Virus record (IMG/VR): IMGVR_UViG_3300045988_138000
Source: a virus
Strand: one strand, 5' to 3'
Length of the DNA: 64,000 nucleotides
Positions 39,065-63,261 of this stretch are shown here, piece after piece; the first letter of the stretch is position 1; every line of letters starts with the position of its first letter. Under the pieces are notes generated by a model. The model was not told the DNA's origin. It saw only the letters and a list, made by a program, of their open reading frames with translations, and did no database searches. Both the position numbers and the translations under genes were made by a program.

Positions 39065-39065
39065 C

Positions 39066-39099
39066 GAAAAAAAACGGGCTGCAAACAATTTGCAGCCCG
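39066..39099 (-). terminator. rho-independent terminator after 39107..39457
   Basis: cgggctgcaa-acaat-ttgcagcccg (10-bp stem) followed by a T8 run on the minus strand. Confidence 0.75.
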
Positions 39100-45072: not shown

Positions 45073-47718
45073 TTAGTAATTATTATTGTTGCTCATTATT
45101 CCTGCGTCAAGATTACCGAAAGTGGTTTCCGTCTGTATTGAATAGATTTTTTCGTGAAATTCGGGTGCCATGTACGTTGCGCTAAAGGAAGCTATCTGTA
45201 CATAGAAGGATGGCCTTGTCACGCTCTGTCCCTTTTTGATGGCAGGCACCAGCTTTGTGTTGTCGTAGACCTTGGCATCCGCAGTAAGGAACACGCCATC
45301 CGCAAGATTTGTCAGCGCACCATTCTTCACCATTGTGCGGCTCGTAAACGTCCTTCCGTCGGCTGCACTCGCAAGGTCGTAGGTACTCAATCCGTTAGCC
45401 GAGTCGGCTACTATCTTTCCGTTCACCCTTGGTGCTGAGTAACGATACAGGGTTGTCTGTTTTCCCGTCGCACCCTTAACGAAAAGAATGTAGTTGTTAT
45501 CCTTCATTGCCGTGTACCACGTCTTAGTGGTGTCAACCCACGGAAGATCTACATTCTCTCCAAGCGGAGTCGTCAGTCCTGCATCCTCTGCTTTGATATA
45601 TCGCGCAGAAGTTATCTTCGCGTCGGTCTTGCTGAGCGAGGCGACACCAGCAGGGCCGAGGTCGTAGAGAAAGTTTCCGTTGTCGTCGTAGTACGACAGC
45701 ACGGCCTGTCCCGAACTGTTCAGACCGAAGCGGATGTTTGCAGTTCCTGCCTTTCCGTAGATATTGATAAGGCCATCGGCTATCCTTACCATCTGTCCGT
45801 TGAGTCCTTGCGATGTAAGCATCTGCGCCAGTATCAGAGCCGCATTGATGGCTCCGTCTGTAAAGAGCGCGGCTGTCGTAGTCTGACCGGTAGAGAGTGT
45901 GTTCTCTACCTTGATTTTCTCGCCATACAGAGTTACTCCGCTCGACGTAATCTCCAGTCCCGCCGCCTTGGCTGTGGCTCTGTCGATGAGGTCGGTCTTC
46001 CGTTCTGTATAATCAGTAAGTTGCGCGCCTTCCTCCAGCTTCGGCTTTGTCACCCAAGCTTCAGTATCGCCTGGAACACGTATCAGCACCTTGTCTGGAA
46101 TCACCTCTGCTCCCTCGCCGGTATAGTCCTCTATTCGCCAATGCACCCAGTACCGCTTATAGGTCGAGGTGAGTGCGAGCTGTGCGTATCCGTCAGCCCT
46201 GCCGTCCGTATATTCGTTTCCTTCACAGGTTTCTGTATATACATTTGCATGAACGCTGTCTCCATAGAGAAAAACGTTGATGTTCCCGCTGCCCTTGGCA
46301 ACGAAGGAGAACACATAGTCCTGATTCTTTACTATTCTCGCCTGCCCAGAAAGGGTAGCCGTTGTTGGAAATTTATATTGCAAGGCTTCTGTGAACTGAG
46401 ACTCTGCCGAGTTGTTTTTGTTGTACAATATACCGTAGCAGCCTTCGTATTTTTCAAACATAATCAGTCCGCTGGCAAACTGGAGATTGCTTTTGTCAGA
46501 CGATTTGGTCAGTGCCATCGTGTCCTCCAAAAGGTTTCCGCCCACATAGTCGTAGTCCGTTTCCGCAGGAGTCCAGCCTGTGTACTCGCTTCCTTCCTCC
46601 AACATCGGCATACATATCCATCCGTTACCAGAGGCAGTATAACCAAAGGTTCCGTCCACGGTTATGCCATTGTAGACAAAGATATTAACTTCGATAAACT
46701 CTGCGTTGCCCGTATTGAAGGTGTAGTTCACCTGCCTCCACCGATTCACCTCGTTCTCCTTCGTCAGCCAATCCATTTTACCCGAGGTGGCAGTAATTCT
46801 GTCCCCTCTATTGCCATTCAGCGCAGCCATCTTGAAAACTTCTGAATGAACCTGTAAGTCCTTCGTGTCGCACTTTATCCATGCGGAAAATGTATAATCG
46901 GTGTTCTTCTTCACAGCGATGCCGTTGATGGTCTGTCCCCAGAAAAGTCCCTTGTACTGAGGCGTTCCGTTACCCGTCACCGAGAAGCGGATGGCATTAT
47001 GTCCGTTCACGCCCTGTGTTATCGTAGGCTGGAATAGTCCGTCCGAATAATATATATCACCCTTCCTCGTCAGTGCCGTATCTCGCAGTAGGTTATGCCG
47101 TCCTTGCTGGCTCTGAGTAACACTGAGAGTAATCTCCTTAGCTGTCTGCTTGATAGTAGATGTGTAGGCGTTGAGAACGGTAGGATTACTTCCTTTGAGG
47201 TCGTTCTCCAATGCCTTAAATTGCGACTGATACTGCTTTGCCGTAACCTTTACACTACCCATATACTTCGACACGTTCACCGAGAATGGAACCTGCGCAA
47301 AATAGACAACACCAGCGTAAACAAATTGTGCGACCGCATAGCCTGATGTTGCAGAAACCTGTCCTTGATTTACCCCGTCAACAATTACATCGTTCTTTGC
47401 AATATTACTGCCTGATACAGATACTTCGATATATCCATCCTTCTGTATTGCACCACATTTACAATTTACACACAAATCATCCCTTGAGTTAATATTGCTG
47501 CATTCATTAGAGATATTCAGGTTACCCTTCATTATCTTTACCTTCGCAACCTTTGATATGCTAACAGGTACAATTCCATTGTCATCTGTGTCAAAAACGA
47601 GCGGAGCGTCTTCGACAATAATAGAAACGGCATCCTTGCCAGGCTTGCCTTGCGGACCTGGCGCACCATCCTTTATCGCCGCTATCGTTATCTGGCCCCT
47701 CGCCAATAATACTGCCAT
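45073..47718 (-). CDS. tail fibre / receptor-binding-like protein
   Basis: 881 aa. N-terminus GQITIAAIKDGAPGPQGKPGKD (short collagen-like triplets), then a long beta-rich body. Confidence 0.75.
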   Translation of the reverse strand: MAVLLARGQITIAAIKDGAPGPQGKPGKDAVSIIVEDAPLVFDTDDNGIVPVSISKVAKVKIMKGNLNISNECSNINSRDDLCVNCKCGAIQKDGYIEVSVSGSNIAKNDVIVDGVNQGQVSATSGYAVAQFVYAGVVYFAQVPFSVNVSKYMGSVKVTAKQYQSQFKALENDLKGSNPTVLNAYTSTIKQTAKEITLSVTQSQQGRHNLLRDTALTRKGDIYYSDGLFQPTITQGVNGHNAIRFSVTGNGTPQYKGLFWGQTINGIAVKKNTDYTFSAWIKCDTKDLQVHSEVFKMAALNGNRGDRITATSGKMDWLTKENEVNRWRQVNYTFNTGNAEFIEVNIFVYNGITVDGTFGYTASGNGWICMPMLEEGSEYTGWTPAETDYDYVGGNLLEDTMALTKSSDKSNLQFASGLIMFEKYEGCYGILYNKNNSAESQFTEALQYKFPTTATLSGQARIVKNQDYVFSFVAKGSGNINVFLYGDSVHANVYTETCEGNEYTDGRADGYAQLALTSTYKRYWVHWRIEDYTGEGAEVIPDKVLIRVPGDTEAWVTKPKLEEGAQLTDYTERKTDLIDRATAKAAGLEITSSGVTLYGEKIKVENTLSTGQTTTAALFTDGAINAALILAQMLTSQGLNGQMVRIADGLINIYGKAGTANIRFGLNSSGQAVLSYYDDNGNFLYDLGPAGVASLSKTDAKITSARYIKAEDAGLTTPLGENVDLPWVDTTKTWYTAMKDNNYILFVKGATGKQTTLYRYSAPRVNGKIVADSANGLSTYDLASAADGRTFTSRTMVKNGALTNLADGVFLTADAKVYDNTKLVPAIKKGQSVTRPSFYVQIASFSATYMAPEFHEKIYSIQTETTFGNLDAGIMSNNNNY

Positions 47719-47762
47719 ACTCTTTCATTTTTTTATTAATAAAAAATAAGGGTGAGGTGCCC

Positions 47763-48806
47763 TTATTTAGACACCTCACAAGTAAACGTGCCTCTCACTG
47801 CCACGTCAGCGTTGGACACCGTGACGTAAGGCTTGTTCGAAGCATTCACCGCACTTGATGTACCGTTCCAGTTCGTGGCTACACCGCTGGCATTGTACTT
47901 CGTCCATTTGTAGATGTAGTTCGAGGCATGGTTGCTGTCTGCCTTCACCGCTGCACCATCCTCCACTACCTTGCCGTCTTTCCAGAGTCGGGCGTAAAGC
48001 TCCGTCGACTGCGCACCGTTCACTATCTTGTCGCCGGTCAGCGAATACACCTCCACCACGTACGGGTCGCTCGCATCGAAGAACGTGATGATAGCGCTGG
48101 CGGTATCAGCACCGTCCTTCACCGTACAGCGGAAAGTCTGGAAGTTAAGCACGTCGTTGGCGCTCACATTCAGAGTGCTCACGCCGCCCGAAGTGCTCAC
48201 GTTGCCCGAAGCCACGGCGTCCCATGTTCCTGCACTGATATTCAGCACCTCCCAAGTCATTGATGTCATGGTGGTGTCCTGCACGTTGCCACGGAAGAAC
48301 TTGGCTATAGCACGCAGCTTCTTGCTGTTGTTGGTCGAGTCGAACGTATTGCCGTCGGGGGTCTCAATCTGCACCGTCTGAAGCGCACCGCCACTCTTGG
48401 CCAGTGAAATGGTCTTGTAGCCGATACACGTAGTCGTAGCCTTTGTCTCCGGGTCTGTGTATTTGCACGACCACTCGATGTTCTTCACGCTGCCGTTCTT
48501 GTCGATGTTGCTGGCGAGGTTAAGCTGATACGACTTGCCGCTCACAGGAGTGGCAGCCACACCATCCAACTTCCACGACCATCCCGTACAAGCCGAGGTC
48601 GGAGCCTGGTCTGTAGCACTGCCCGTCACATATACACGGGCTGTTATCACGTTTGGTTCACTCGACGAGTAGTTCGGAGTGTACACACCCGTGTCGGGGG
48701 TGTAAATCTGAGTCTCGCCCTTAGAGCATTGTGTAAAACACTGAACGGCCTTGCCGTCATTGAGGTCAACGATAGTAATCTGACCATTAGCTAATACTTT
48801 TGCCAT
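47763..48806 (-). CDS. tail fibre-associated protein with repeated Ig-like modules
   Basis: The N-terminus NGQITIVDLNDG parallels that of the 881-aa protein. Modules recur, each ending in F(R/T)C(T/E)V. Confidence 0.7.
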   Translation of the reverse strand: MAKVLANGQITIVDLNDGKAVQCFTQCSKGETQIYTPDTGVYTPNYSSSEPNVITARVYVTGSATDQAPTSACTGWSWKLDGVAATPVSGKSYQLNLASNIDKNGSVKNIEWSCKYTDPETKATTTCIGYKTISLAKSGGALQTVQIETPDGNTFDSTNNSKKLRAIAKFFRGNVQDTTMTSMTWEVLNISAGTWDAVASGNVSTSGGVSTLNVSANDVLNFQTFRCTVKDGADTASAIITFFDASDPYVVEVYSLTGDKIVNGAQSTELYARLWKDGKVVEDGAAVKADSNHASNYIYKWTKYNASGVATNWNGTSSAVNASNKPYVTVSNADVAVRGTFTCEVSK

Positions 48807-48830: not shown

Positions 48831-51146
48831 TTATATGTTACTATTAATAGTCTTTGTATCTGATACGCACACACTACATCCGAATTGTGCCTGTCTGTCT
48901 ACGTCGTCACGTGTTATAAGACAGTTCCGGCCAATCCCCTCATGCAGCTTATTCCATACAGCATCATCTTCGGCATCAGCCGATTGTCGCCACCACGACC
49001 ATGAGCTGTTGCCCACGGTGTCGCTTATGTCCTCGCCATTGCGTAGCAGCGTTGCCTTCAGCGTCATTTCGCCCGAACCGTTAATCATCACCGTGCCCGT
49101 ATCGCTCGTTATCATTATCTGATAAGCCACGCCGTCCTCGCCCTTGTCTCCCTTCTCGCCTTTGCTTCCAGATAGAACTTTTTTCCATTGTGTCGAGCCG
49201 TCAGAAGGCTCACCTGTTACGTCCTCCTCTGAATTGGCAACACACACCCAAACGGCATTATTGTGATTTACTTGGTCGTTCTTATGATAGGTATTTCCTT
49301 CTACCCAGTCACCTCTATAATTGATGATATTAATAGTACTGCCGTCATCCGAAATCAATTCAAAGTGTGAGGAATTGATTTTCGTTCCACCCTTCGGTGA
49401 AGTCTCGAATACCGACAGAGATACTTCTTTGTTCTCGCCATTTACGCTTTTTGTGATAGTATGCTTGTACTCAGAGATATTAGCATAGCAAGCGATACGA
49501 GGAGCATAGTCGCCAGTTGTCTCAAGGATAATCACGTTCTGCCTGTCCGTCTTGTCGTACTCAAGATTGCCATTACGATGTCTGTTGCCGTCCAGCACGA
49601 TTGTGTCGCCCTCAGCAGGGTCTCCCTTTATCTCAACAGGCGCATTCTTCTCTGTATATCCGTCTAAGCCTTCGGAATGCTTGCCAACGACAATCCAAGC
49701 AAACGCCTGACCATCGTACAATTCCACCTGTTCTTCTCTCGTCTGCTCCTTACCAGCTTCGTCAAGATAAGTCTCCGTTTTAGTGCCGTATATCTTCTCA
49801 TTTTGCGTAGATACGCCACCATCAGGAATAGTACGCCAGTAACTCTTATTACTTGTATCACTATATGCTCCACCAGCCACAATCTCGCCAATAGTCTGAC
49901 AGCGCACTTGGTCGCCCTCCTGCCAGTAGTTCATCGTGGCAGTAGTTCCGTTGTCAGCTAAGAGATAGCATTTCCAGCCAGCGCATTCTGCATCATCCGC
50001 AGTTGTTTCTACCCAAAATATAACACCGTCAGCAGATACCGATTCCTTGACAGGCACAACTTTGATAAGCTTGCTACCAGCTCCAGATAAATAGATGTTG
50101 CCTCCAGAATAAGACAGCTTGCGTACATCTAATTCGTGGAATATCGCCTTGCCCCAGATGGTGAGGTTCGTAACGAAGGCGTGATATTTTCCGTTATCCT
50201 TCTTAACAGCGAAACCCTGCTCTGCTTCGTTGTCGTAGTCGATGGACTGTAACGACTCAAAGATGGCACGTCCTGCCTCGTCTATCAACGCTCCTCCCTT
50301 ACCAAAGTAAGCACCTCTGTTCAGCTTTACTAAAGCCTCGCTCACCAGTCCTTTGATAAAGGTAATCATGCCGTTTACCGTGTCATCATTCTCTTTGGAT
50401 AAGAAATGGCGTACACCAAACTGCCCAAGGAACTCAGGAGTAACCACTTTGTTGGCTGACGTATCATCGGTGTTTTCTGTCGCTACGCCAACGATTTTAT
50501 GTCCATTCAAGAAAAGGGTGGCGATAGTGGCTGTCGCTGCCTTGAGCGTAGTAAATGCTGCCACAGAGATGGTCTTCAGGAACTTGATGGTGTCGTGTAC
50601 TGACTCATATCTCCACCACTGACCCTCGCCGCCGGAAGCTATCGCTTCGTCGGTGGCAAGAGAACCGTATTCCACAGTGAGAGTCCACTCACGATACTTT
50701 TCTATGATGTCCTGATCGTTCTCATCCTTACCTACATTTTTGGTCAGGACCTCAGAGATTTCTCCTTGCAGATACACATAGTAATAGTCCTCGTTGCCCA
50801 CCTGCTTGTCCGGAGATGCAATAGACTTACCGTAGATGTCAATGCGCTCGCTGGGGAATACCACCATTGCCGTACCGTTGACGCCATTGCTGACGCGCGG
50901 AATGGCTACGTAAACATACTTAGCCTTTGCATCAGGAAAGAGAGAGGGATAAGCCACTAACGGCCAACGCTGATAGTTGTGCCCGGCATCGTAGCCCAGA
51001 CCCTCAATGTCCTGCATATAGCATAGAATAGAAGCACCACTCGCCACGCTACACTGGATGTAGTTAGGCTCACCCATTGCGTTGAGTTGGATATAGAGCG
51101 CACTGCTCGAAATCCAATAATTCGTAAGTTTGACTTCTGTTGCCAT
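48831..51146 (-). CDS. tail fibre/spike-like protein
   Basis: 771 aa, with GSKGEKGDKGEDG triplets near a C-terminal Ig-like module. Confidence 0.7.
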   Translation of the reverse strand: MATEVKLTNYWISSSALYIQLNAMGEPNYIQCSVASGASILCYMQDIEGLGYDAGHNYQRWPLVAYPSLFPDAKAKYVYVAIPRVSNGVNGTAMVVFPSERIDIYGKSIASPDKQVGNEDYYYVYLQGEISEVLTKNVGKDENDQDIIEKYREWTLTVEYGSLATDEAIASGGEGQWWRYESVHDTIKFLKTISVAAFTTLKAATATIATLFLNGHKIVGVATENTDDTSANKVVTPEFLGQFGVRHFLSKENDDTVNGMITFIKGLVSEALVKLNRGAYFGKGGALIDEAGRAIFESLQSIDYDNEAEQGFAVKKDNGKYHAFVTNLTIWGKAIFHELDVRKLSYSGGNIYLSGAGSKLIKVVPVKESVSADGVIFWVETTADDAECAGWKCYLLADNGTTATMNYWQEGDQVRCQTIGEIVAGGAYSDTSNKSYWRTIPDGGVSTQNEKIYGTKTETYLDEAGKEQTREEQVELYDGQAFAWIVVGKHSEGLDGYTEKNAPVEIKGDPAEGDTIVLDGNRHRNGNLEYDKTDRQNVIILETTGDYAPRIACYANISEYKHTITKSVNGENKEVSLSVFETSPKGGTKINSSHFELISDDGSTINIINYRGDWVEGNTYHKNDQVNHNNAVWVCVANSEEDVTGEPSDGSTQWKKVLSGSKGEKGDKGEDGVAYQIMITSDTGTVMINGSGEMTLKATLLRNGEDISDTVGNSSWSWWRQSADAEDDAVWNKLHEGIGRNCLITRDDVDRQAQFGCSVCVSDTKTINSNI

Positions 51147-51178: not shown

Positions 51179-51186
51179 CAAAGTTA
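51179..51186 (-). promoter_or_regulatory. -7 box TAACTTTG (minus strand) upstream of the fibre genes
   Basis: Lies 33 nt upstream of the ATG at 51146, in a 166-bp gap. Confidence 0.5.
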
Positions 51187-51312: not shown

Positions 51313-52365
51313 TCAAAGTAAAAGCGAACCATTAATATCGATCACTACTTTAAACGACAAAGCATACATGTTGGTGTTGGTGTCATCCTGGATAGTGGTC
51401 TCGTCTTCCAAAAGAATGGTGCATGGAATCCAAATGCCGTGCGATAGAATCCATGCGTGTTCGCTCATGGCAAACTCGTGCAGATACCAGTCGAGCCAAC
51501 TCTCGTCGAGCGGGTCAGTAGTGAGATTCCAAGTTTCCTGATCATTCTGCTTCTTGACCGACGCACGAGAGAAGGAGTTAAAAGTCTCCTGCTTTGCCAC
51601 AATATACGATTCTGTTGTAAGCGCCATCTTACGGCTGTAGGATTTCGGCAGACTGACACTCTCAAGTACACCAAACAGATTGATGAAGCGTATGGTGTAA
51701 CGGTTGCTCGCCTCTGTAGCAGGAAGCGCATAGAGTTGGTGAGTACCGACGGTCTGCAGTCCTTCCTGCGTAATCTCCTTAGAGACAGACGTGGGAGGAA
51801 CCAGGGTCGGACTGTTACTGAGCAGTTGTTCCGTCTCGTAGGGTGTAGTATAAATAAAGGTGTCACCCACAACGACGGGTTGCGGCAAAGTGTTCGGCTT
51901 TCGGGTGAAAGAAATGACTCCCTTACTGGGTCCAGACTGAAGGCGCACCATATCAGAGAAAGCACCCGCAATGCAGCGAAGGTTCGTGTTGCCGGTTTCG
52001 TCGGGCTCTTGAGGATAAAACACCTCGCCTACATTGGTAAATATCTCACCATTGTTATCCATATATTCATCGTAGGCATGGACGTACCAGCTCACGAAAG
52101 GATAGGTTGTCGGCTCGGGAGTATATTTATAGGAGTCGAGTGCCGCACGCAAAGCTGACGATACATCAAGCGATACATCAGTGCCCTCTTTGGTGACGGG
52201 TTCATTGAGTTTTATGACATCATAGCTGCCGTCATTGTCGAACACGACCTCTACGACGACACGATGAAAAGAAGGCGTATTCTCAAAAGCTGACGGAGAG
52301 ATGGTAAAAGTAATCGGGTTGCCAGCAAGGATTGAACCAGATGTAAGTAAAATTTTCTGTGCCAT
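51313..52365 (-). CDS. hypothetical structural-like protein
   Basis: 350-aa beta-rich ORF between the ACP gene and the fibre genes. Confidence 0.7.
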   Translation of the reverse strand: MAQKILLTSGSILAGNPITFTISPSAFENTPSFHRVVVEVVFDNDGSYDVIKLNEPVTKEGTDVSLDVSSALRAALDSYKYTPEPTTYPFVSWYVHAYDEYMDNNGEIFTNVGEVFYPQEPDETGNTNLRCIAGAFSDMVRLQSGPSKGVISFTRKPNTLPQPVVVGDTFIYTTPYETEQLLSNSPTLVPPTSVSKEITQEGLQTVGTHQLYALPATEASNRYTIRFINLFGVLESVSLPKSYSRKMALTTESYIVAKQETFNSFSRASVKKQNDQETWNLTTDPLDESWLDWYLHEFAMSEHAWILSHGIWIPCTILLEDETTIQDDTNTNMYALSFKVVIDINGSLLL

Positions 52366-52428
52366 ATCTATAGATAAAACAGGAGATGAATGTATGTGCT
52401 GAGATTTTTCTTGGGGCTACGAAAGTCG

Positions 52429-52677
52429 CTAAGACATTTTTTTCTCTACGATAGCTGTCACATCAGACACAAGTTGTAAGTCTTTTGCCTCTTCGGGCGA
52501 AATCTTGATATGGAACATGGTTTCGGTCTGAAGAACGAGATCGAGAAAGTCGATAGACTCAAGAGCGAGATCATCACGCAGGTTAGAGCTGTCGGTCACT
52601 TCTGCTGTCGATGCCCAAGGTGTGCGCAGGCCTTCAACTATATTGAACACCCGCTGGCGAATATCTTCTTTGTTCAT
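52429..52677 (-). CDS. acyl carrier protein
   Basis: 82 aa. RDDLALESIDFLDLVLQTE aligns with the ACP D-S-L phosphopantetheine-attachment helix. ATGA overlap with the KAS gene. Confidence 0.8.
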   Translation of the reverse strand: MNKEDIRQRVFNIVEGLRTPWASTAEVTDSSNLRDDLALESIDFLDLVLQTETMFHIKISPEEAKDLQLVSDVTAIVEKKMS

Positions 52678-53888
52678 AATGATTGGAATTTAGAAATGAT
52701 GAATGACGAGTTGGTGCCTCCGAAGCCAAAGGCATTACAAAGAATATGGTGTGATAAGTACTCGCGTGACTGCATGACGAGATTGAGCTTAGGAAAAGCA
52801 TTCTCGGCTGTGGTAGCCGCACCGAAGATAGTGTCTGTGTTGAGCATCATGGCGGCTTGAACGGCCTGCGATACACCAGCCATCCAGCACTCGTGACCCG
52901 TCATACCCTTGGTGGCTACGATATAAGGGCTCTCGGGGAACACCTTTCCGATGGCTTCTGCCTCTGCAGCATCGCCCTGCTCCGTACCTGTGGCATGGGC
53001 GAGGAGTACATCTATCATTCCGGCATCGAGTCCAGCCGACTCTATGGCCTTAATCATTGCCACCTCTTCCTGATAAGCATCCGGGGTACAGATGCTGGTG
53101 CCATTAGTGGAAAAGCCGTAGCCTGAAAGTTCTGCCACGGGCGAGACTTCATAATCCTCAAAACGCAAGCTGTCGGAAGGCTCAAGAATGACACAGGCTG
53201 CACCACCCGAAGGAGCAAGACCATTGCGGGCTTTGCCGAAAGGCTGCACCTTGTCGGGCGAGAAAACGCCCATGGCATCAAACGACAGCATGGAGAAGGG
53301 ACCAGTCTCCTGTGCTCCAACGACAATCACCATGTCGGTTTGGCGCGCATCAAGAAGCATCTTGGCAAGACCGATGGCATGACCTCCTCCGGCACAAGCC
53401 CCGCTGACGGTAAGCGAGAGTCCTTTCAGTCCGTAGATAGAGGCGAGGCTCATGCTGACGGTGGAATTGAGTGTGCGGAACACTGCACCTGCCCCTAAAC
53501 GTCGGGTGTCGCGCTGTGTAATGGCAGTGGTCATTGCCTGATAGTTGTCTCCCGCCGTAGAGTCGTTGCTGACGATGACCGATACATTGTGAGACTGCAA
53601 GAACTCGGGAAGAATATTGGCTTCCACCAGAGCCTCGTTGACGGCAGATAAGGAATATAGGGTCGGTTCGGAAAGACATTGCCGTTGACCCCTGGTGAGT
53701 TTTGAAAACTTCCAAGGGTTCGGATCATTTATCTTTCCGCACAGGTCGGACTGATAACCTTTCTCGCTGCGCGCGGGGTCGTGGTGCAGACCGCACTCTC
53801 CATACGCCAGCTTCTGTGCGACGGAAAAGGTATCGTTGCCAAGACTGGAAACAATACCTGTGCCTGTGATTAATATTTTTCTATCCAT
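52674..53888 (-). CDS. beta-ketoacyl-ACP synthase (KAS I/II, Cys-His-His type)
   Basis: Start moved to MDRKILITGTGIV (ATG at 53888). Active-site Cys in VSGACAGGGHAIG, His residues in HATGTEQGD and GMTGHECW, and a C-terminal NAFGFGGTNSS. Confidence 0.85.
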   Translation of the reverse strand: MDRKILITGTGIVSSLGNDTFSVAQKLAYGECGLHHDPARSEKGYQSDLCGKINDPNPWKFSKLTRGQRQCLSEPTLYSLSAVNEALVEANILPEFLQSHNVSVIVSNDSTAGDNYQAMTTAITQRDTRRLGAGAVFRTLNSTVSMSLASIYGLKGLSLTVSGACAGGGHAIGLAKMLLDARQTDMVIVVGAQETGPFSMLSFDAMGVFSPDKVQPFGKARNGLAPSGGAACVILEPSDSLRFEDYEVSPVAELSGYGFSTNGTSICTPDAYQEEVAMIKAIESAGLDAGMIDVLLAHATGTEQGDAAEAEAIGKVFPESPYIVATKGMTGHECWMAGVSQAVQAAMMLNTDTIFGAATTAENAFPKLNLVMQSREYLSHHILCNAFGFGGTNSSFIISKFQSL

Positions 53889-53917: not shown

Positions 53918-56731
53918 TTACAAGGCATAGACGGTCAGTTCTACCTCTCCAATGCCTTCCTTGGCCGTGATAGTTGTATTCACCTTGTCGATAAGACATT
54001 TCACACCTCCGATGTTCCACCACGTCTTCCAGTGGTTAGGTATGTCGGCTATCTGTGCGACAGAAGCCGAACAGCGGATGATGTACTTCTTGCGGTTAAG
54101 CAGGAAATAGGCGTAGGGCAGAATGAAGGTATCGAAAAGACCGCGTGAGCGTATCTTGGTTATCACATTGCCGTTAGTGTCCACCTCGTCGGGGGCGCAG
54201 AGTGAAACATCCTTATATTCAGGCTTACTGAGCCATGACGGCTCTTTGAAAGCACGTATCTTGAGCGAGAAACGTTCACCTTTGCCTCTGCCTTCCTGAA
54301 TACCATTATAGTCGAAGACATTGCCCATCATGTCAATAGAGTCGCAAGCAAGAGCATATTCGCCTGCTGCCGTGCGCCACTTGGAAGTACCGAAGTGGTC
54401 GTAGTTATAGTCATAGGGCTCTGTAGTTGCATTCGTACCGCCGCCTCGCATCATGGCCAAGGCAAAGCCCCATCGTGAATCGTCTTGAAGAGGCGAGTTG
54501 CCGTCTTCGGTGTTTGACGGGTCGTAGCTCTCGACGAGTTTCAACGACTGCTGCATATAGAAGTCGCAGAAAGGCGAGGAGATGGTCTGGTTGATGATTT
54601 GCTCGACAAACTCATGCTCCATGTCCTCATCGACATAGGCGCAGAGGATAGGCTGTCCTTCCTTGATAACGACACCATAGGTTGTTGTCTTTGAATCGTC
54701 ATAGTACTTTGCCGTATGAGAGCCGTAAGCAGCCTCTATCTCCTTGAAATAGTTGACATCATTGAACGGCACGGGGGTGAAGTCGATGGTGATGTCGTGG
54801 ATGAAGTCTTCATTCTCCTCGCTGCAATCGCCATACTCCACACCCTTGTACTGGCCTACCTCGAAAAGCACAGGCTTGAGGTCGGCTGTAGTAGTGGCGT
54901 CGCCATTCACCTTCACGCGATAGGCATTGCCCGTCTTCGGGTCGATGTAGCATCTTTTATCGCCAGAACTTAAATTATGAAAGAAGTCAACGTAATCTCG
55001 ATCGTAAACCGTTTCGTTGTCTCCACTTCCCGGTTCGGGATAGTCGATATAGTCGTAGTCGGTAGCATAGCCCATATTTTTATTCTTGCGGCTGTCCTTG
55101 ACGTTCTGCTGCTGATCCTTGGCATCGCTCTCTTCGGAGTATCGCATACGTACACCCGTTATCTTCTCGCTGACGGGAATGATAGAATGAACGTCTGCGC
55201 GAAACGTGCGTGCTGGCTGTCCACTCTCGCGAAGCACGTCACGGATGAGGTAGGCCGTGACTTTCTTTTGCTCATAGTCGTAGGAAAACTTGATGCCGAA
55301 GGCGCTCTCCAAGGATGAGATAATCGTGCTGACACTCTCATCGGGGAAGTTGTCGCTGTTGGCCACCATATAGAGCACGTTGGCCTGCACGTTGAACTTA
55401 GAGATTTGCGCCTCGATGCTGATACCTGTCACCTTTCCGCCCTCTTTTGTCGTCTCTCCCACCTGTATGTGTTCGGAAGTTCCTTCGTTAGTGGTAAGGG
55501 TGAGCTCGTTGACCGTCTTGTCCTCTGCCTTTACGATGTTGATTTTTCCACCACAACCGCGCGACTCCAACCAGGAGTTGATATGATCTTGCTTCTTGAA
55601 ATATCCTTCCTTAATCTCGCCTGCCTTCTTTTTCTTGGCGATGACTTCGGGGTCTTTATCCTCATAGTATGTTCCGTGATGTGGATGCTCTTTGGTGTCG
55701 TAGGCGCAAACGGTGGTGAAGAAACAGAGGTGCTTCATATCCTCTATCTGCATCAGTGCCGACTTGTCGAAGGTGACACCCAGGTGAGCAAACAGGCAGT
55801 CGAGAAAATAGAGTACATAGAAACAGATGCCCGACTGCGGACGGCGTGCGTCCAACACCCAATAGGGATAAAGATCCTCGTTGGTCCACTTGCAGTCCTT
55901 CGTGCTGATAACGTCGCTCGATGTGGTGCCATCGTCAGCAAGTCCGTGGTGCTTGTAGCAGATACGGGCGTTGCAATAAGCTGCCGGACGGCCTGCGCCA
56001 TCTGTCTCGCCATAGGCTGCCGACGTGTTGATATAGTCGCCATTCTTGGCGATGGCGGGCTCGTTGACTGTATTTCCGTTGGGGTAGGCTCGTGACGACT
56101 TTCTCTTAGCGTCGGCCTTCATGTGTAAAGGATAAAGGATATTGGTGGTGTACTCCTGGCACGATGCAGGATAGGAGAAGCCAAGAGCCTGCGGTTCGAG
56201 CACTTTACTTACACTTACGTGCTCGGCATGAATGGTTCGGGTGACAGTCTCATCATCCTTATGCTTTCCTCCCTCCACAAACACACTGACATTTACAACA
56301 GGGTCGCTCTCGATGTCTACCCTTACGTTGCCTATCTTCTCGCCGATGATCAGTTCATCCTTGATGGGGATGTCACGACAGTTGAGCGAACCGATGAGGT
56401 CGCTGAAACTCTGTCTGCCTGCATTAATACTCATAGAGAGCGAGTCTTTTATCTCTTCAGCATCCTGCATGACGAGCGTACCGTTGCGGAAGGGCAGTCC
56501 GTCGGCATGAATGCGCGTAGGCAAATGCTCCATATTGACAGCACGAAACGATGCCCGCACGTCATCGATGTTCTTTACCAGCCATCGGTTGCCGTCGAGC
56601 GGAATGGAAAACGGATAGGCGAACATCTCGTTATCATTGAACACAGGGTTCTGGTCCTCTATATCGATAGAGAAATCATCGGGCAGCGACACAGGTCGGT
56701 CGTTGATAAGTATGGTGAGATGTGAGTTCAT
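53918..56731 (-). CDS. large virion (baseplate/tail-like) protein
   Basis: 937-aa ORF, translationally coupled (ATGA) to 56728..57396. The function is inferred from size and context only. Confidence 0.7.
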   Translation of the reverse strand: MNSHLTILINDRPVSLPDDFSIDIEDQNPVFNDNEMFAYPFSIPLDGNRWLVKNIDDVRASFRAVNMEHLPTRIHADGLPFRNGTLVMQDAEEIKDSLSMSINAGRQSFSDLIGSLNCRDIPIKDELIIGEKIGNVRVDIESDPVVNVSVFVEGGKHKDDETVTRTIHAEHVSVSKVLEPQALGFSYPASCQEYTTNILYPLHMKADAKRKSSRAYPNGNTVNEPAIAKNGDYINTSAAYGETDGAGRPAAYCNARICYKHHGLADDGTTSSDVISTKDCKWTNEDLYPYWVLDARRPQSGICFYVLYFLDCLFAHLGVTFDKSALMQIEDMKHLCFFTTVCAYDTKEHPHHGTYYEDKDPEVIAKKKKAGEIKEGYFKKQDHINSWLESRGCGGKINIVKAEDKTVNELTLTTNEGTSEHIQVGETTKEGGKVTGISIEAQISKFNVQANVLYMVANSDNFPDESVSTIISSLESAFGIKFSYDYEQKKVTAYLIRDVLRESGQPARTFRADVHSIIPVSEKITGVRMRYSEESDAKDQQQNVKDSRKNKNMGYATDYDYIDYPEPGSGDNETVYDRDYVDFFHNLSSGDKRCYIDPKTGNAYRVKVNGDATTTADLKPVLFEVGQYKGVEYGDCSEENEDFIHDITIDFTPVPFNDVNYFKEIEAAYGSHTAKYYDDSKTTTYGVVIKEGQPILCAYVDEDMEHEFVEQIINQTISSPFCDFYMQQSLKLVESYDPSNTEDGNSPLQDDSRWGFALAMMRGGGTNATTEPYDYNYDHFGTSKWRTAAGEYALACDSIDMMGNVFDYNGIQEGRGKGERFSLKIRAFKEPSWLSKPEYKDVSLCAPDEVDTNGNVITKIRSRGLFDTFILPYAYFLLNRKKYIIRCSASVAQIADIPNHWKTWWNIGGVKCLIDKVNTTITAKEGIGEVELTVYAL

Positions 56732-57396
56732 TGTTTCTTGATATTTACTTGAGCGTTGTCGTATATAGAGATAAACTGACGGGTGAAGGAGTTGACGACG
56801 GCATTACCGAAAGCGTAGACAGCTCTGTGGCCATGGTCGGTGAGTGTGCCTGCCGTAATGTTGACCACCGACATGTCATAACACTCGGCAGAGACATTGG
56901 TGGTCAGTCGGGACTGGTTGCGTGCAACGGCGTGACCTTCCTTGACGGTGGCACGTGAGAAGTCGCGCAACTCTACATGGCAGTCGGGATTCATAACCAG
57001 GGCAGAGGCGATGTTGTGCAGCACGACACGGGCGTTGCCCAGGATATAGGCCGTGTGGGCATGATAGAGGTGGATGGTCTCTGTGCTGTCGCCGATGAGC
57101 ACGTTGCCCGTAGGCGAGTCCTCATTATAGAAAATGCCGGCAGCATTGATCTCGCTCTTATAGTCAGGATAGAAGTCACGAAAAGCTGCCATGACCTGTT
57201 GTGGCACTTCGGTTATCATGCCGTGCCAATATTTGTGCCAGGCAGCGCACATCTGCTGTATGCTCTCCGTGCCACGGAAGGCAAGTTGCGACTCCTGGCA
57301 GTTGCCGCTCTGGGCAAGGATGGCGATACACAATGCCTTGAACTTTTCGGACTTCTCCATATTCTGACTCTTCTCTATTATCGAATTTCCAGTCAT
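56728..57396 (-). CDS. hypothetical virion-module protein
   Basis: 222-aa ORF. Confidence 0.65.
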   Translation of the reverse strand: MTGNSIIEKSQNMEKSEKFKALCIAILAQSGNCQESQLAFRGTESIQQMCAAWHKYWHGMITEVPQQVMAAFRDFYPDYKSEINAAGIFYNEDSPTGNVLIGDSTETIHLYHAHTAYILGNARVVLHNIASALVMNPDCHVELRDFSRATVKEGHAVARNQSRLTTNVSAECYDMSVVNITAGTLTDHGHRAVYAFGNAVVNSFTRQFISIYDNAQVNIKKQ

Positions 57397-57433: not shown

Positions 57434-58510
57434 TTAGACTCCCGCTTCGGCGATGGTCTTGGTAAGGATGGCCTCGTAGCCAGTGAGTTCGTCCTCGGTT
57501 ACGATGTCGGCATACTCCTGGCGCAAACGGTCGATACGCTCCTTCAGTCCATTTACTCTTGCCTTGGTACTGGGCTTGTCCTTTCGGATGATATACTTGA
57601 TGATGGCATCGGCTTCGGCCTTGTGCTTGGCTGCCTTGTCGCGTGCGGCTTTCACCTCTGGGCGGTCGGCAGCGATTTTCTCTGCTATGATGACGGCAAA
57701 ACGAGGGTCGCGCTCTTGTGCTTTCTCATAGAAGGGCTTGAGCTGGGTACGCAGTTCCTGTGGCGACAAACTGAAAGTCTTTTCCACATAAGCGATGTAT
57801 TCAGGGTCGCCATTGCGCTGATTCAATCGGAGATAGACTTCGCCCATTTCACGGTCCACTGCCATGTAAATATCGGGCAGGATTTGGCTCTCTATCTCTG
57901 TTGCGCGGGTTGCGAGCAGCGCTATCTCGGCTTCAGTGTAGAGGATGCCCTTGTTCTGCTGTTGTGATTTCTCGTTGGCTTCTGCCATCGTCTTGGCTTG
58001 CTCGGCCTTGCTTGCCATCTCGTTGCGGAGGTCACGCACGGTATTGACGCGCTGTTGAAGGGCAGGACTGAGGAAGGGACGTATCTGTGCGAGGTTGGGC
58101 ATGGTGGCGGCGATGCTCTCGCCGTTGGGATTGGCCACGATGCCGCCGTAGGTGAGTGGCTGTACGGCCACGTTGGGCTTTATCTCGGGGAAGAGCGACT
58201 GGCGGGCTTCGTCGAGGGCTTTCTGCTTCTGCTGTTCGTTGTATCGTTCCTGCTCCTCCTTGGTGGGTCGGCCCACGTGGCGCTTGGCTTCGGCAGCCTC
58301 TGGGATAGGGATAATCTGCAGGCTGGTGATCAACTGGCGCACACGGCGGTGGTAGTCACGAAAACGATGTGAGTCGCGCACGAAAGCCTGTGCACTGGGC
58401 ACGCTTTCGAGCAGTGTCAGTCCCTGCTCGAAGGCTTCTTTCTGTTCGGCTGTCAGCATTCGGGTGTTGAGTGCCGGCGTGAGTATCTGGATGATTTGCT
58501 CTTTGTTCAT
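57434..58510 (-). CDS. hypothetical helical, charged protein (scaffold-like composition)
   Basis: 358-aa ORF rich in Ala, Glu, Lys, Gln and Arg. Confidence 0.65.
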   Translation of the reverse strand: MNKEQIIQILTPALNTRMLTAEQKEAFEQGLTLLESVPSAQAFVRDSHRFRDYHRRVRQLITSLQIIPIPEAAEAKRHVGRPTKEEQERYNEQQKQKALDEARQSLFPEIKPNVAVQPLTYGGIVANPNGESIAATMPNLAQIRPFLSPALQQRVNTVRDLRNEMASKAEQAKTMAEANEKSQQQNKGILYTEAEIALLATRATEIESQILPDIYMAVDREMGEVYLRLNQRNGDPEYIAYVEKTFSLSPQELRTQLKPFYEKAQERDPRFAVIIAEKIAADRPEVKAARDKAAKHKAEADAIIKYIIRKDKPSTKARVNGLKERIDRLRQEYADIVTEDELTGYEAILTKTIAEAGV

Positions 58511-59662: not shown

Positions 59663-61459
59663 TTACTCCTGTCCCTGCTTCGTGACGCCTGTCTTCGAGT
59701 TGTCGAGGGTGGTAAGCACCTCACGGTCTATCTGCCATTCGAGGTGTGGGTCCCATTCATTGATTTCGTCGGTTACCTCCAAGGAGCGGAGCATGAGCTG
59801 CTGCAATGGGGCAAACTGTATCTGCTTGACGAGGAAACGCTCGCGGAGGTCAGTGCCGCCCGATGAGGTTGCGTCGCCTGGGGTGTTGCCGATGAGCTTG
59901 GAGTCGAGACCCATAGCGAAGAAGATGATGCTTGTGATTTCCTGCAGCTCGGTCTTCTCGGCTTGCGCTTGCGAGTTGGCCTTGCTCTCTATCTCCACAA
60001 TTTCCCAAGCCTTGTGCTCCTTGCCGTCGGTGCCGTTGAACACGGCAGAGATGAGCGCCTGACCCGCATTGTCGGGATTGGAGAGCCACGTGTTGATGTC
60101 GTTGAACACCTCCTGCTGAAGCTGCGCCATGGTCTTGGTCTTCTTGTCGCCCTGCTGGGTGTAAAGGTTCTTGAGATATTCCTGGTGAATGTAGATGACG
60201 CGACCGATGATGTTGGAGTTGCGCTTACGGGTGAGTCGGTCGTCGACGATGGTGAAGGCATACTCGTAGATGCTTCCGGCAAAGATGCTGTGCCAAAGGG
60301 CATCGGCATAGTAGGGACCGCCGTAGTCGCGTGGCGACATGATGAAACGGGTGGGGCGGTCCTTGCGGCTTACCCGCTGCTGACGGGCACGGCGCACGGC
60401 GGCCTGGAGGTCTTTCACTGCCGACACGGCGGGAAGATAGGGCACGGCGGCGATGCTCTTGTCGAGGTCGGCAAACTGAGCGGTGCGGTCTTGCGTGGGG
60501 TCGAGCCACTGGTTCGACAAGTAGGCATAGTTGATGCGATAGTTGGTGTCCTGTCGCTCCAGTCGGGTGGTGAAGATGCTGCGGTGTTTCAGTCCCACTA
60601 CCTTGGGTGTCCACTGGCTTGTGGGTACCGGCTTGCCCTCGTCGGAGAGTTGTCGCTGGTTGAGTTGCAACTCGACGAAGCACTGCGACATGAGCGCCAT
60701 GTCGCCCGCCATGTTGAGGAAGGTCTGCATCAGGTCGTTGTCCTTCATGAATTTCTGCACCTCGCGGTTGGTCTGTTCCCACTTGGCGAGGGCATCCTTC
60801 AGGGCTTTCATCTCGTCGCTGTCCTTGGGCTGCTGACTTTCAGACTGCTGGCTGACGGAATGCAGAGGGTCGTCGGGGTCGCCGCTGATGCCGTTCTGCT
60901 GTTGCTCCTGAAGGTCGGCTTTCTCCTGTGCCTTGAGGTCGGCTATCTGTCCGCGGAGCAGTGTGCCAGCCGATGCGTATGGGATGTATTTCTCGGTGAT
61001 GTTGCCGCCTACGTACTGGGTGTAGTGGTACTTGGGCGAGGGTCCGTGGCCTACGAGTATCTTCTTGATGAAGTCGACACCGGCTGCGGTGAAGGGCGAC
61101 ATTCGTGAGAGAATCCAGACGAGGTTGGGCAGTCGGTTGCCCACGCCCCATTCCATGTAGCCCAGTCCGGGTGTTCCCACGCCGTTGGGCTTGGCCTTGT
61201 TCTCGCCGCCGCTGGAGGCGAAGATGGTGGAAATCTGTCGTCGGGCTCCCGATGAGGTGGACGAGCTGCCCTGCGCTGTCATGCCGGCTGTCTCGAAGAG
61301 CATGGAGCGGACGTAATCGTTCCATGAGAATACTTGAGCGCCGCTGTTGGGATTGATGAAAGCAGAGGGCGACACGGCCACATATCCATTTTGCTTCAGC
61401 TCCTCACTACGATCTTGGAACTGCTGTAAGTTGGTAACTCTGTTCTTGTTGCGTGACAT
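59663..61459 (-). CDS. large virion-module protein (possible portal; unverified)
   Basis: 598 aa and the first gene after a strong promoter-like block. The portal call rests on size and position only. Confidence 0.6.
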   Translation of the reverse strand: MSRNKNRVTNLQQFQDRSEELKQNGYVAVSPSAFINPNSGAQVFSWNDYVRSMLFETAGMTAQGSSSTSSGARRQISTIFASSGGENKAKPNGVGTPGLGYMEWGVGNRLPNLVWILSRMSPFTAAGVDFIKKILVGHGPSPKYHYTQYVGGNITEKYIPYASAGTLLRGQIADLKAQEKADLQEQQQNGISGDPDDPLHSVSQQSESQQPKDSDEMKALKDALAKWEQTNREVQKFMKDNDLMQTFLNMAGDMALMSQCFVELQLNQRQLSDEGKPVPTSQWTPKVVGLKHRSIFTTRLERQDTNYRINYAYLSNQWLDPTQDRTAQFADLDKSIAAVPYLPAVSAVKDLQAAVRRARQQRVSRKDRPTRFIMSPRDYGGPYYADALWHSIFAGSIYEYAFTIVDDRLTRKRNSNIIGRVIYIHQEYLKNLYTQQGDKKTKTMAQLQQEVFNDINTWLSNPDNAGQALISAVFNGTDGKEHKAWEIVEIESKANSQAQAEKTELQEITSIIFFAMGLDSKLIGNTPGDATSSGGTDLRERFLVKQIQFAPLQQLMLRSLEVTDEINEWDPHLEWQIDREVLTTLDNSKTGVTKQGQE

Positions 61460-61500: not shown

Positions 61501-61597
61501 TTGCTTTTTTCGACTACAAAAGTAGGGAGAATTATTTTAATGGTACGGACATGAGTCAGAATAGCGAGAGCTGCACGGCTCGGTTGCCTCTTTCGGC
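61501..61597. repeat. ~97-bp direct repeat, copy 1 (promoter block plus a remnant of the Dam-like gene 3' end)
   Basis: About 80 percent identical by eye to 63391-63488. Contains the minus-strand -7 box TACTTTTG (61517-61524). Confidence 0.8.
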
Positions 61598-61817: not shown

Positions 61818-62636
61818 CTATCGTTTGATATTCCACATGTGCTCTGCCGGACCAACGAGCACGTCTATGTTTGCGCCCTGCTTCAGAGCCACCGTTTCCA
61901 CCCATTTAAGCTGAATAAACTGCTGCGGGCTAAGATTCATCTCGCTCATATACGCCTTATCTGCCACAGCCTTTTGGCGCTCGGCCTTCTCGCGAGCCAC
62001 CTGAACCTCATACTCACGTTCCTGTGTCTGCTTGGCCTGTACCATCTTTGCCGTGCGGTTCATTTCGGCAAGCTGTTCCTTGTTGGGTGTAGCCTTGCCG
62101 ATGATAACGTCCTTGATGATGACGGGCATCGGCTTGTGCTTGGAGAGGGTAGCCACGTAATCCTGCATCTGCTTCAGAATCTTCTTGTCGATGGTGCTCA
62201 ATACCTGACGGTTGGACATCAAATCAAACGGACTATACTGTGAGATATGGTCTCTGACAAGATTGCAGAAATAGTTGTAGAGGTTGGTGTCAAACCAGTC
62301 GCGTCCATAGTTCTGCAACAGCACGGGCGACTTGCCTTGCTCCACCTGAGTGACTATGACAGAATGGAAGTCGAGCGGCGTGTTGTCGTCGGAGAAGATG
62401 TCGTCAAGAACAACCTCGTGACGTACAGGCACTATCTTGAATGTTTCTGCATGAGTACTCAGGGCACACCATGTCAGGCCACTCTGTACTGGGTCGTTGT
62501 CAACACCTCCGTGTCCGAAGAACCAAGGTTTCTTTACCAACACGGTTTCCTCGTCGGCATCGGGCGACACAAAACAGCACGAGGATAACATCACTACTGC
62601 GACAAGCGCAAAAAGAATTGAAAATAATTTTCTCAT
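61818..62636 (-). CDS. SPFH/band-7 (prohibitin-like) lipoprotein
   Basis: Start moved to MRKLFSILFALVAVVMLSSC (lipobox). The body and the C-terminal Glu/Lys/Ala coiled coil (QTQEREYEVQVAREKAERQKAVADKA) fit the SPFH architecture. Confidence 0.6.
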   Translation of the reverse strand: MRKLFSILFALVAVVMLSSCCFVSPDADEETVLVKKPWFFGHGGVDNDPVQSGLTWCALSTHAETFKIVPVRHEVVLDDIFSDDNTPLDFHSVIVTQVEQGKSPVLLQNYGRDWFDTNLYNYFCNLVRDHISQYSPFDLMSNRQVLSTIDKKILKQMQDYVATLSKHKPMPVIIKDVIIGKATPNKEQLAEMNRTAKMVQAKQTQEREYEVQVAREKAERQKAVADKAYMSEMNLSPQQFIQLKWVETVALKQGANIDVLVGPAEHMWNIKR

Positions 62637-62706
62637 AATTGTATTTTGTTTATATTGATTCATTAAAATCCTTATATATGACTATCGTACATTGCACCCG
62701 CTGCCT

Positions 62707-63261
62707 TTACGACTCAATCTCGGGAGGGTTACCGCCAGGCTTCTGCTCGCCGCCACCCGTGGTGCCGGAGTCGCCTGTGCCGGGAGCTGCGGGAGCATCC
62801 GTTGCAGCAGCATCGCCCACTCGCTTGAACGAGCCGTGCTGTGCGAAGGCAGCGTTGAATTTCTTGGAGAAGTCGATGGCAACACCTGCGGTGAGGTCCT
62901 TTGTGGTGAGATCGGCGGCGGTAATCTCTCGGTTCACGTCAACGTCCTCGCCTGCTGCCTTACGTGCTTCGAGCTTCGCCTTGAGCTGGCTCTGAGTGAG
63001 CGAACCGCTGACGGTAGGACGTACCGTCATGCCCTCGGCAGACACCTGTACCTTGGTGCCCAGTGCCAACAGAAGCGGCAGCTTTTTCTCCAACTGCGTC
63101 ATCACGGCCATTACGTCCGCTGCGCCTACTGTAGAGTCCTGCGCCATGTAGTCGCAAAACTCAGGGAATGACATCTGCTGCAAGTCAACGATCTGTGCGC
63201 TTGCCAACTTCTCCTGTGTGAGGTGGTTCACACGAACTGCAATTCTTGTTTTAATTGCCAT
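62707..63261 (-). CDS. Bacteroidales-type HU-like DNA-binding-domain protein with Gly/Pro tail
   Basis: FPEFCDYMAQDSTVGAADVMAVMTQLEKKLPLLLALGTKVQV fits the HU-like pattern of Bacteroidales histone-like proteins. The tail is GGGEQKPGGNPPEIES. Confidence 0.55.
   Translation of the reverse strand: MAIKTRIAVRVNHLTQEKLASAQIVDLQQMSFPEFCDYMAQDSTVGAADVMAVMTQLEKKLPLLLALGTKVQVSAEGMTVRPTVSGSLTQSQLKAKLEARKAAGEDVDVNREITAADLTTKDLTAGVAIDFSKKFNAAFAQHGSFKRVGDAAATDAPAAPGTGDSGTTGGGEQKPGGNPPEIES

Follow-up and report, generated by a model that had tools for sequence, protein, structure and literature searches.

Phages are well known to carry auxiliary metabolic genes for photosynthesis and for nucleotide and sulfur metabolism, and phage acyl carrier proteins (ACPs) have been listed among them as PHROG 5934. 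The minimal type II polyketide synthase (PKS), composed of a ketosynthase/chain-length factor (KS/CLF) and an ACP, borrows FabD and a phosphopantetheinyl transferase (PPTase) from primary metabolism. In aryl-polyene clusters ApeR, a FabB-like homodimeric ketosynthase with dedicated ACPs, is found beside a FabG-like reductase (PMC8358021). The flexirubin clusters of Chitinophaga pinensis, and also of Flavobacterium, encode an aromatic ammonia-lyase (TAL, the flxA product), a reductase, FlxB, and a ketosynthase, FlxC (PMC3992019). Here we describe a beta-ketoacyl-ACP synthase (KAS) and an ACP encoded as a pair in the IMG/VR virus record IMGVR_UViG_3300045988_138000; the whole stretch of 64,000 nt that was analysed is called the window below. 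It is probable, at roughly 0.6 in our estimate, that this pair is an operon-embedded auxiliary metabolic cassette, in which an active FabB-like enzyme and a private ACP, captured from the core of a Bacteroidota flexirubin/aryl-polyene-type cluster, make use of host enzymes.

The original prediction, made from the letters of the window, had named an 82-aa ACP and a 405-aa condensing enzyme. Both genes are present where it had placed them; the KAS has 404 aa. The profile searches it had proposed gave matches over the Pfam cutoffs for PF00109 (2e-26) and PF02801 (2.4e-20) in the KAS and for PF00550 in the ACP (22.7 bits, cutoff 20.8). The best match of the KAS in the PDB was FabB of Vibrio cholerae (4xox, 3e-49). 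When the sequence is aligned to the solved FabB, VSGACAGG falls at Cys163, HATGT at His298/Thr300/Thr302, KGMTGH at Lys328/His333, and GFGGTN at the gating Phe392 loop. The KAS carries the full Cys-His-His/Lys/Thr/Phe catalytic set, and the Cys/His/His motifs first picked out from the letters do sit at catalytic positions. C165, H298, K327 and H332 of the phage enzyme, and the HECW and GFGG motifs, are invariant in 62 of 62 phage homologues.

Gammaproteobacterial FabB (V. cholerae 4xox, Escherichia coli 1fj4) resembles the phage KAS in length, in the layout of the fold domains, and in Cys-His-His, Lys328, Thr300/302 and the Phe392 gate. It differs in overall identity (27.9% to E. coli FabB), in the residues of the pocket and in the HECWMAG loop. 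Identity to E. coli FabF is 25.8%, and to the KAS of Bacteroidota clusters 40–44%. With NCBIfam the KAS scored 192 bits on the FabB model, against a cutoff of 630, and 179 bits on the FabF model, against 494. These alignments and scores place the KAS as a true member of the family that is not a housekeeping FabB or FabF orthologue. The pocket changes relative to FabB are G107S, T135F, M138L, E200S/A and F229L, with the HSLGAAG loop replaced by HECWMAG. Since the majority of them are also found in a cellular clade bearing the motif TGHECWM, the substrate preference of the phage KAS probably resembles that of FlxC-type enzymes rather than that of FabB. Like ApeR, the phage KAS would be a stand-alone FabB-like ketosynthase working alongside a dedicated ACP. 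However, the ApeR of P. phymatum (4ewg) gave 101 bits compared to 171 bits for V. cholerae FabB, so that the phage KAS is nearer to FabB. The aryl-stacking Tyr135 of ApeR has been equated with Met138 of FabB (PMC8358021); here the phage KAS has Leu, and the cellular TGHECWM clade has Met.

An attachment-site helix had been noticed in the 82-aa ACP, and in alignments with solved ACPs its serine, Ser41 in LESIDF, falls on that of their DSLD motif. Ser41 and the surrounding motif are invariant in 59 of 59 phage ACP homologues. The protein matches PHROG 5934 ‘acyl carrier protein’ (4e-8), a family match it has in common with the phage ACPs listed as auxiliary metabolic genes; it differs from these in being paired with a condensing enzyme that has no PHROG match. 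It falls under every NCBIfam ACP cutoff, including that of AcpP. Judged by these profiles, it is a true ACP family member, divergent from housekeeping AcpP. A profile built from the phage ACPs gave 37–43 bits with the ACPs of flexirubin clusters vs. 26 bits with E. coli AcpP.

Cellular relatives of the KAS were sought in one genome per GTDB species with the signature motif and a second conserved pattern, and at least 597 matched stretches encode them. The best 80 of these at least 597 matches are 40–44% identical to the phage KAS and belong to Flavobacterium, Chryseobacterium, Sphingobacterium, metagenome-assembled genomes (MAGs) of Bacteroidales, and others. The closest cellular sequence among the matches listed has 44% identity. 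Of 81 cellular loci, 80 have FabG and 78 have TAL before the KAS; after it come an ACP, usually at no more than about 40 bp, and a lipid-A-type acyltransferase (each 77/81). DarB/DarA homologues lie no more than 7 kb from the KAS in about 47 of the 81. The resulting layout, TAL-FabG-KAS-ACP-acyltransferase, is that of a flexirubin-type cluster.

The phage pair is like the flexirubin clusters, at the position of FlxC (PMC3992019), in having TGHECWM after the second catalytic His and in the order KAS, then ACP. The identity of the proteins is 40–44% for the KAS and about 29%, over a local alignment of 52 aa, for the ACP. Unlike in these clusters, no TAL, FabG-like reductase, lipid-A-type acyltransferase, DarA/DarB, dehydratase or exporter was found in the window or the rest of the phage genome. 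The comparison thus identifies the phage cassette as derived from a flexirubin/aryl-polyene-type cluster, and not as such a cluster itself. Since the accompanying genes were not found in the phage and its KAS forms a long branch of its own, a flexirubin or aryl-polyene product cannot be assumed. The gene order and the ACP profile scores are a weak but consistent indication that KAS and ACP were captured as one unit.

In neighbour-joining analysis the phage sequences and the cellular TGHECWM clade were grouped to the exclusion of E. coli FabB and FabF in 300 of 300 bootstraps. The phage sequences were monophyletic in 297 and the cellular sequences in 256 of the 300. The phylogeny that had been called for at the outset thus sets the KAS apart from E. 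coli FabB and FabF, on a neighbour-joining tree with thin outgroups. A reduced cluster was also seen in Bacteroidales of the gut and rumen (L073, 6516–12326; L007; L056; L068). It contains TAL, FabG, a putative transporter, a TGHECWM-type KAS and a putative O-methyltransferase, the transporter and methyltransferase labels being a reading of the translations. These four loci are without DarA/DarB, and no ACP was detected next to the cluster in three of them. On the side of the host, this may be the pathway to which the phage cassette relates.

A pair of cellular-type genes on a viral contig might be a passenger without function, whether picked up recently with host DNA, joined on by chimeric assembly, in decay, or exapted to a structural role. 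The distribution of the pair bears on this directly. A KAS protein of exactly this sequence is on record from 185 public contigs (327 indexed collection blocks), and the contigs read reach 117 kb. A scan of IMG/VR with the 937-aa protein encoded immediately upstream gave 67 loci, 62 with a homologue of this protein at least 69% identical and five with one at 38–49%. In all 62 of the closer loci the KAS (58–99% identity) directly follows the 937-aa homologue, and in every one that extends far enough the ACP (54–100%) and then a homologue of the 350-aa protein follow the KAS. Synteny, raised as a check by the original prediction, is therefore complete in this set, while KAS identity falls to 58%. 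In four more distant relatives (L141, with a 937-aa homologue of 49% identity; L146; L156; and L159, 38%) the 350-aa homologue begins 14–15 bp after the 937-aa homologue, and no KAS or ACP was found anywhere in these loci. In the fifth (L149, 47%) the pair is not present and no 350-aa homologue was detected. The synteny of the 62 loci and the adjacency of the flanking genes in the four distant relatives lead to the conclusion, from comparative gene order, that the pair was inserted between two formerly adjacent genes at the base of one lineage and was then inherited vertically.

The pair is under purifying selection comparable to that on the neighbouring genes. The ratios of nonsynonymous to synonymous substitution (dN/dS; Nei-Gojobori, pairs with dS 0.05 to 1) were 0.12 for the KAS and 0.16 for the ACP, compared to 0.055, 0.06, 0.08 and 0.12 for the 937-, 598-, 358- and 350-aa proteins. 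The G+C content of the cassette, 0.53–0.55, is the same as that of its neighbours. A 15-nt direct repeat, GTCG[C/A]TAAGACATTT (14/15 match), at 52425–52439 and 53987–54001, roughly brackets the cassette, and on a rough estimate about 0.07 such matches would be expected by chance, which is what can be said for a passenger. The first copy falls at the stop of the ACP gene, the second within the 3′-terminal part of the 937-aa gene. Since the match is marginal by chance and the cassette is old, the repeat is unlikely to be a surviving scar of the insertion. With invariant catalytic residues, unremarkable G+C, conserved synteny and no listed cellular sequence closer than 44%, a recent pickup or an artefact is effectively refuted, and a passenger of any of these kinds is very improbable. 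A cassette absent from relatives and flanked by scars, the circumstance that had been put forward as telling against the original prediction, is not what was found.

What is found are cellular-type genes in a true phage genome, lying between genes that are adjacent in relatives and kept by selection, as in auxiliary metabolic genes or morons. The cassette is probably embedded in an operon; a promoter box before it and a convincing terminator after it, such as would mark the classic autonomous moron, were not found. Related loci (L097–L160) repeatedly show a spacer of 81–83 bp, which either separates KAS from ACP or stands before the 350-aa gene, after the ACP, and in many of them there is a 120-bp spacer ahead of the KAS. 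Such recurrence suggests a small intergenic element, either repeated or mobile.

The genome can be classed as that of a bona fide phage from its tape measure, holin, GH108 endolysin and tail-fibre-like genes. Open reading frames (ORFs) of at least 45 aa in the window were scanned with Pfam, singly or concatenated. For about 37 kb beyond the window the sequence was taken from a near-identical contig (IMGVR 3300045988_155282, 100,781 bp, 937-aa protein 99% identical) and an ENA contig, and ORFs of at least 81 aa were scanned. The window gave matches to YopX, HNH, beta clamp, exonuclease, Rep3_C, ParA, NAD ligase, methylases, Band_7 and HU, none of them related to FAS (fatty acid synthesis) or PKS. 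Beyond it were LysR, the GH108 endolysin, the holin, C5 and N6/N4 methylases, the tape measure (PF10145), a BT4734/PriCT-2 primase, guanylate kinase and ThyX, with a weak, sub-threshold radical-SAM match. In this genome of about 100 kb, at these ORF lengths, Pfam detected no PPTase, malonyl transferase, reductase, dehydratase, thioesterase or acyltransferase. The earlier statement that partner enzymes are missing from the window holds at this level and extends to the rest of the genome. Since no partner enzyme was found, the pair would depend on host AcpS, FabD, FabG, FabZ and FabI, and the reliance on host FAS proposed originally is a sound deduction.

The same findings can be read in terms of host takeover, which is the main rival and in our judgement unlikely. 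The pair would drain malonyl-ACP and malonyl-CoA, or pile acyl-ACP onto a carrier that host acyltransferases cannot use, and feedback would stop fatty acid and phospholipid synthesis, which could weaken the envelope before lysis. Acyl-ACP is known to inhibit FAS. A sink of this kind fits a genome of about 100 kb in which no thioesterase or acyltransferase was found, a private and divergent carrier below every NCBIfam ACP cutoff, and the position of the pair in a late block, with holin and GH108 endolysin elsewhere in the genome. However, a mere sink has no need of so conserved and complete a condensing machinery, and takeover functions are usually encoded by early genes.

A second group of phages shows that the pair is found with other neighbours. 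A scan of IMG/VR with an alignment of the KAS revealed about ten other viral contigs (L388–L399), seven of them of 90–107 kb, with a TGHECWM-type KAS that is 38–48% identical to the one described here, depending on the alignment. In at least eight of these contigs the order is ACP (87–92 aa), then KAS (409–456 aa), with a 16-nt overlap measured in five. All seven catalytic positions of the KAS are conserved in 10 sequences, and the ACP Ser is retained. Several of these pairs begin 31–102 bp after a tape-measure gene, the product of which is 27–42% identical to the 1991-aa tape measure of the phage described here. The pair lies between this gene and a gene-poor stretch of about 1 kb, and downstream there are homologues of the primase-like and ThyX genes of the present phage. 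A KAS after the tape measure was found in none of 80 loci nearer to the present phage (C-terminal region of the tape measure at least 54% identical). On a contig of 160 kb (L401) the order is KAS, then ACP. Since the intact pair occurs at a second locus with different neighbours, it seems to be retained as a functional unit at two sites in one broad phage family, and it would be the unit, and not a given neighbour, that matters.

In the present phage about 20 kb separate the KAS from the gene of the 1991-aa tape measure (PF10145) upstream, as read from the near-identical contig (L173, 5939–11914; L168, 130–5644). After the tape-measure gene there is about 0.9 kb without a sizeable ORF and then the genes for primase, guanylate kinase and ThyX. 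Genes for structure and for nucleotide metabolism are interleaved in this genome.

The original prediction had proposed that the pair could make an acyl group for lipidating a virion or tail-fibre protein; a variant would have KAS or ACP packaged in the particle. In both known positions the pair is directly 3′ of a large late gene, for the 937-aa protein or the tape measure, and tail-fibre-like genes are within about 1.3 kb downstream in the window. The proposal nevertheless fares poorly: the genome yielded no acyltransferase, relatives hold the same flanking genes without the cassette, and the neighbours differ between the two phage groups, with the pair after the tape-measure gene in one of them. 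The 350-aa neighbour predates the cassette and shows no enzyme-like fold. Virion lipidation is accordingly a doubtful reading, to which we give little credence.

An operon-embedded metabolic cassette would be accounted for as follows. An ancestor of a family of Bacteroidota phages of about 100 kb would have captured the KAS-ACP core of a type II cluster of the flexirubin/aryl-polyene type. The pair would be transcribed late in infection with the surrounding block. Host AcpS would convert the phage ACP to its holo form, as no phage PPTase was found, and host FabD would load it with malonate, as no phage malonyl transferase was found. The KAS, as a homodimer, would take an acyl chain on Cys165 and carry out a decarboxylative condensation with malonyl-ACP through His298, His332 and Lys327, a step suggested by the intact and invariant residues. 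The beta-keto product would then be processed by host FabG, FabZ and FabI or by enzymes of a pigment pathway. The net effect would be to draw part of the host malonyl and acyl flux onto the phage carrier pool and so to change the lipid chemistry of the envelope in infected cells. The pair would not be a building block of the virion. The minimal type II PKS is alike in its condensing enzyme and private ACP that borrow FabD and PPTase from the cell. The phage pair differs in having no chain-length-factor partner or tailoring enzymes, and its KAS is FabB-like and would be homodimeric, and is not a KSalpha.

Several points weigh against this account. Every catalytic and physiological step in it is one that we infer from sequence. 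The search of the approximately 100-kb genome found no dedicated thioesterase or acyltransferase to release a product from the phage ACP. The monophyly of the phage sequences could be due in part to long-branch attraction, the outgroups being few, with no host FabF, ApeR or ApeO. Co-transcription with the late block is suggested by the distribution of one 8-nt consensus motif. The host is probably Prevotella/Segatella, an assignment taken from the names of MAG and assembly records alone; records with the exact KAS are named ‘Prevotella sp.’, ‘Candidatus Segatella violae’, ‘Bacteriophage sp.’ and ‘Caudoviricetes sp.’.

The features of the locus are collected in Table 1, with the genes in the order of their transcription.

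Table 1. Features of the KAS-ACP locus, in coordinates of the 64,000-nt window of IMGVR_UViG_3300045988_138000.
Feature	Position	Strand	Remarks
Candidate Bacteroidetes-type -7 box, TACTTTTG	61517–61524	minus	58 nt before ATG of 598-aa gene
598-aa protein	59663–61459	minus	Upstream; first gene of putative transcription unit
DUF6712 protein, 351 aa	58541–59596	minus	Pfam PF20459 match
358-aa protein	57434–58510	minus	Upstream; putative transcription unit
222-aa protein	56728–57396	minus	Upstream; putative transcription unit
937-aa conserved protein	53918–56731	minus	Upstream edge of insertion site
KAS, FabB-like beta-ketoacyl-ACP synthase, 404 aa	52674–53888	minus	Bacteroidota ‘TGHECWM’ clade; ATG at 53888
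ATGA stop/start overlap, KAS/ACP	52674–52677	minus	Direct sequence reading
ACP, dedicated acyl carrier protein, 82 aa	52429–52677	minus	Attachment Ser41 in L-E-S-I-D-F-L-D; Pfam PF00550
350-aa conserved protein	51313–52365	minus	Predicted mostly beta; downstream edge of insertion site
Candidate -7 box, TAACTTTG	51179–51186	minus	33 nt before ATG of 771-aa gene; ends putative KAS-ACP unit
771-aa tail-fibre-like protein	48831–51146	minus	C-terminus matches tail-fibre PHROGs
347-aa tail-like protein	47763–48806	minus	phrog_3267 ‘tail protein’, 2e-59
881-aa protein	45073–47718	minus	‘Minor head protein’ PHROG match, 5e-16; weak CBM_4_9 match below Pfam cutoff

The ATGA overlap of KAS and ACP, and the gaps of 29 bp between the 937-aa gene and the KAS and of 63 bp between the ACP and the 350-aa gene, are as first read. 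The overlap is not universal; across the phage clade the distance from KAS to ACP ranges from -4 to 363 bp. The four genes that begin the block (598, 351, 358 and 222 aa) are separated by -4 to 66 bp, and their order is kept in all related loci.

The window was scanned for the Bacteroidetes -7 box with one 8-nt consensus, TAnnTTTG. There were 35 matches on the minus, coding strand, 17 of them in intergenic sequence, which makes up 12% of the window. No such box was found on this strand between the two candidates at 61517 and 51186, and in 61 related loci none was found upstream of the KAS or of the 350-aa gene, even at gaps up to 205 bp. A terminator-like hairpin is present at 47752–47779, by the 347-aa gene, and no convincing terminator was found after the cassette. 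These results agree with the earlier reading that neither promoter nor terminator separates the pair from its neighbours, and they suggest a single transcription unit from the 598-aa gene through the 350-aa gene, with the KAS and ACP inside it. A scan for sigma-70 promoters was discarded, as it is uninformative for Bacteroidota and its counts were near those of shuffled controls.

The neighbours themselves gave few matches to described families. Conservation in the block is highest for the 937-aa protein, at 69–99% identity across the clade, and a profile search found 299 clusters of its family at 50% identity. Pfam and PHROG gave no match for this protein or for 48 diverse members of the family, and a profile search of PDB sequences gave nothing. 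The 937-, 350-, 598-, 358- and 222-aa proteins had no Pfam, PHROG or NCBIfam match. Among further ORFs upstream and downstream, nine more were without a PHROG match and the 881-aa protein alone had one. The AlphaFold2 model of the 937-aa protein had a mean confidence (predicted local distance difference test, pLDDT) of 27. That of the 350-aa protein, with a pLDDT of 54.5, is mostly beta strand at low confidence; Foldseek gave no match to the PDB below E 0.01, and there was no match to a PDB sequence. Among 50,697 GenBank phage records nothing matched the region by megablast, or the 937- and 350-aa proteins by tblastn. The description of the 937-aa protein as a virion protein and of the 350-aa protein as structural-like thus finds no support in Pfam, PHROG, NCBIfam or the PDB. 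Three fibre genes had been seen downstream. The tail-fibre-like C-terminus of the 771-aa protein and the match of the 347-aa protein to phrog_3267 are in keeping with this, but for the 881-aa protein the PHROG match is to a ‘minor head protein’. From the gene content, it is reasonable to regard the cassette as embedded in a late, tail-proximal block.

No description of a phage-encoded condensing enzyme with its own ACP was found in GenBank phage records, PHROGs or the searchable literature, in agreement with the original prediction, which knew of no counterpart. No PHROG matches the phage KAS, and a search of the literature on phage KAS or ACP and on gut or Prevotella phages returned nothing relevant. 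The sole ACP match in GenBank phages is a hypothetical protein of a Vibrio phage (30% identity). Apparent precedents for the KAS in GenBank phages were rejected. Aside from MT837464, 27 matches are only 23–29% identical. MT837464, ‘Bacteriophage sp.’, with a KAS of 40% identity, is a Bacteroidales chromosomal fragment with NusG-like, FabG and KAS genes; its KAS has the same unusual motif, GMTGHECWMAG, as the phage KAS. The one of the 27 that was inspected, gp41 of Escherichia phage 500465-2 (L329, NC_049343.1, 3422–4642), annotated as ‘beta-ketoacyl-ACP synthase I’, is host fabB, with mnmC, a major facilitator superfamily (MFS) transporter and flk as neighbours, as on the E. coli chromosome. 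The transporter is yfcJ in K-12. The prophage boundary of this record was overcalled. An IMG/VR contig (L406) similarly has a KAS 100% identical to E. coli FabB.

Other features of the genome may be mentioned. A plasmid-like maintenance set at 21513–24920 includes a 381-aa protein with Rep3_C (21513–22658) and a ParA/AAA_31 protein (23457–24329), with AT-rich, iteron-like tandem repeats beside them at 22687–22743, 22870–23045 and 24759–24920; the element may be a phage-plasmid. Two GC-rich tandem repeat arrays at 38632–39066 and 40907–41351, one with a 58-nt unit repeated 7.4 times and the other with units of 64–87 nt, give rise to spurious ORFs in all frames. HU is encoded at 62707–63261, and the LysR regulator lies just beyond the window. 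Upstream of the cassette block, at 61818–62663, is, close by, a gene for a Band_7/SPFH-domain protein with a lipoprotein-like N-terminus (…LSSCCF…), another function directed to the membrane.

The pair is not a curiosity of one contig, and it is abundant in metagenomes of the human gut. Its occurrence on 185 public contigs, its fixation in a lineage of gut phages of about 100 kb, and its presence at another locus in a second lineage argue for a real selective benefit. Bacterial pigment-lipids affect tolerance of oxidative stress and formation of biofilms, and the origin of the phage cassette in a flexirubin/aryl-polyene KAS-ACP core would tie phage biology to these pigment-lipids of the outer membrane. 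One may speculate, with an outcome we regard as possible and not as likely, that these phages, aided by enzymes of the host, use the KAS and ACP to form a specific product in the Prevotella/Segatella cells that they infect. This might be a phage-directed outer-membrane lipid or an aryl-polyene- or flexirubin-like pigment, which would alter the envelope with consequences for protection from oxidative stress, superinfection exclusion, vesiculation or lysis. If true, a commensal of the human gut would have its surface lipid chemistry rewired by a type II PKS/FAS module that a virus encodes.

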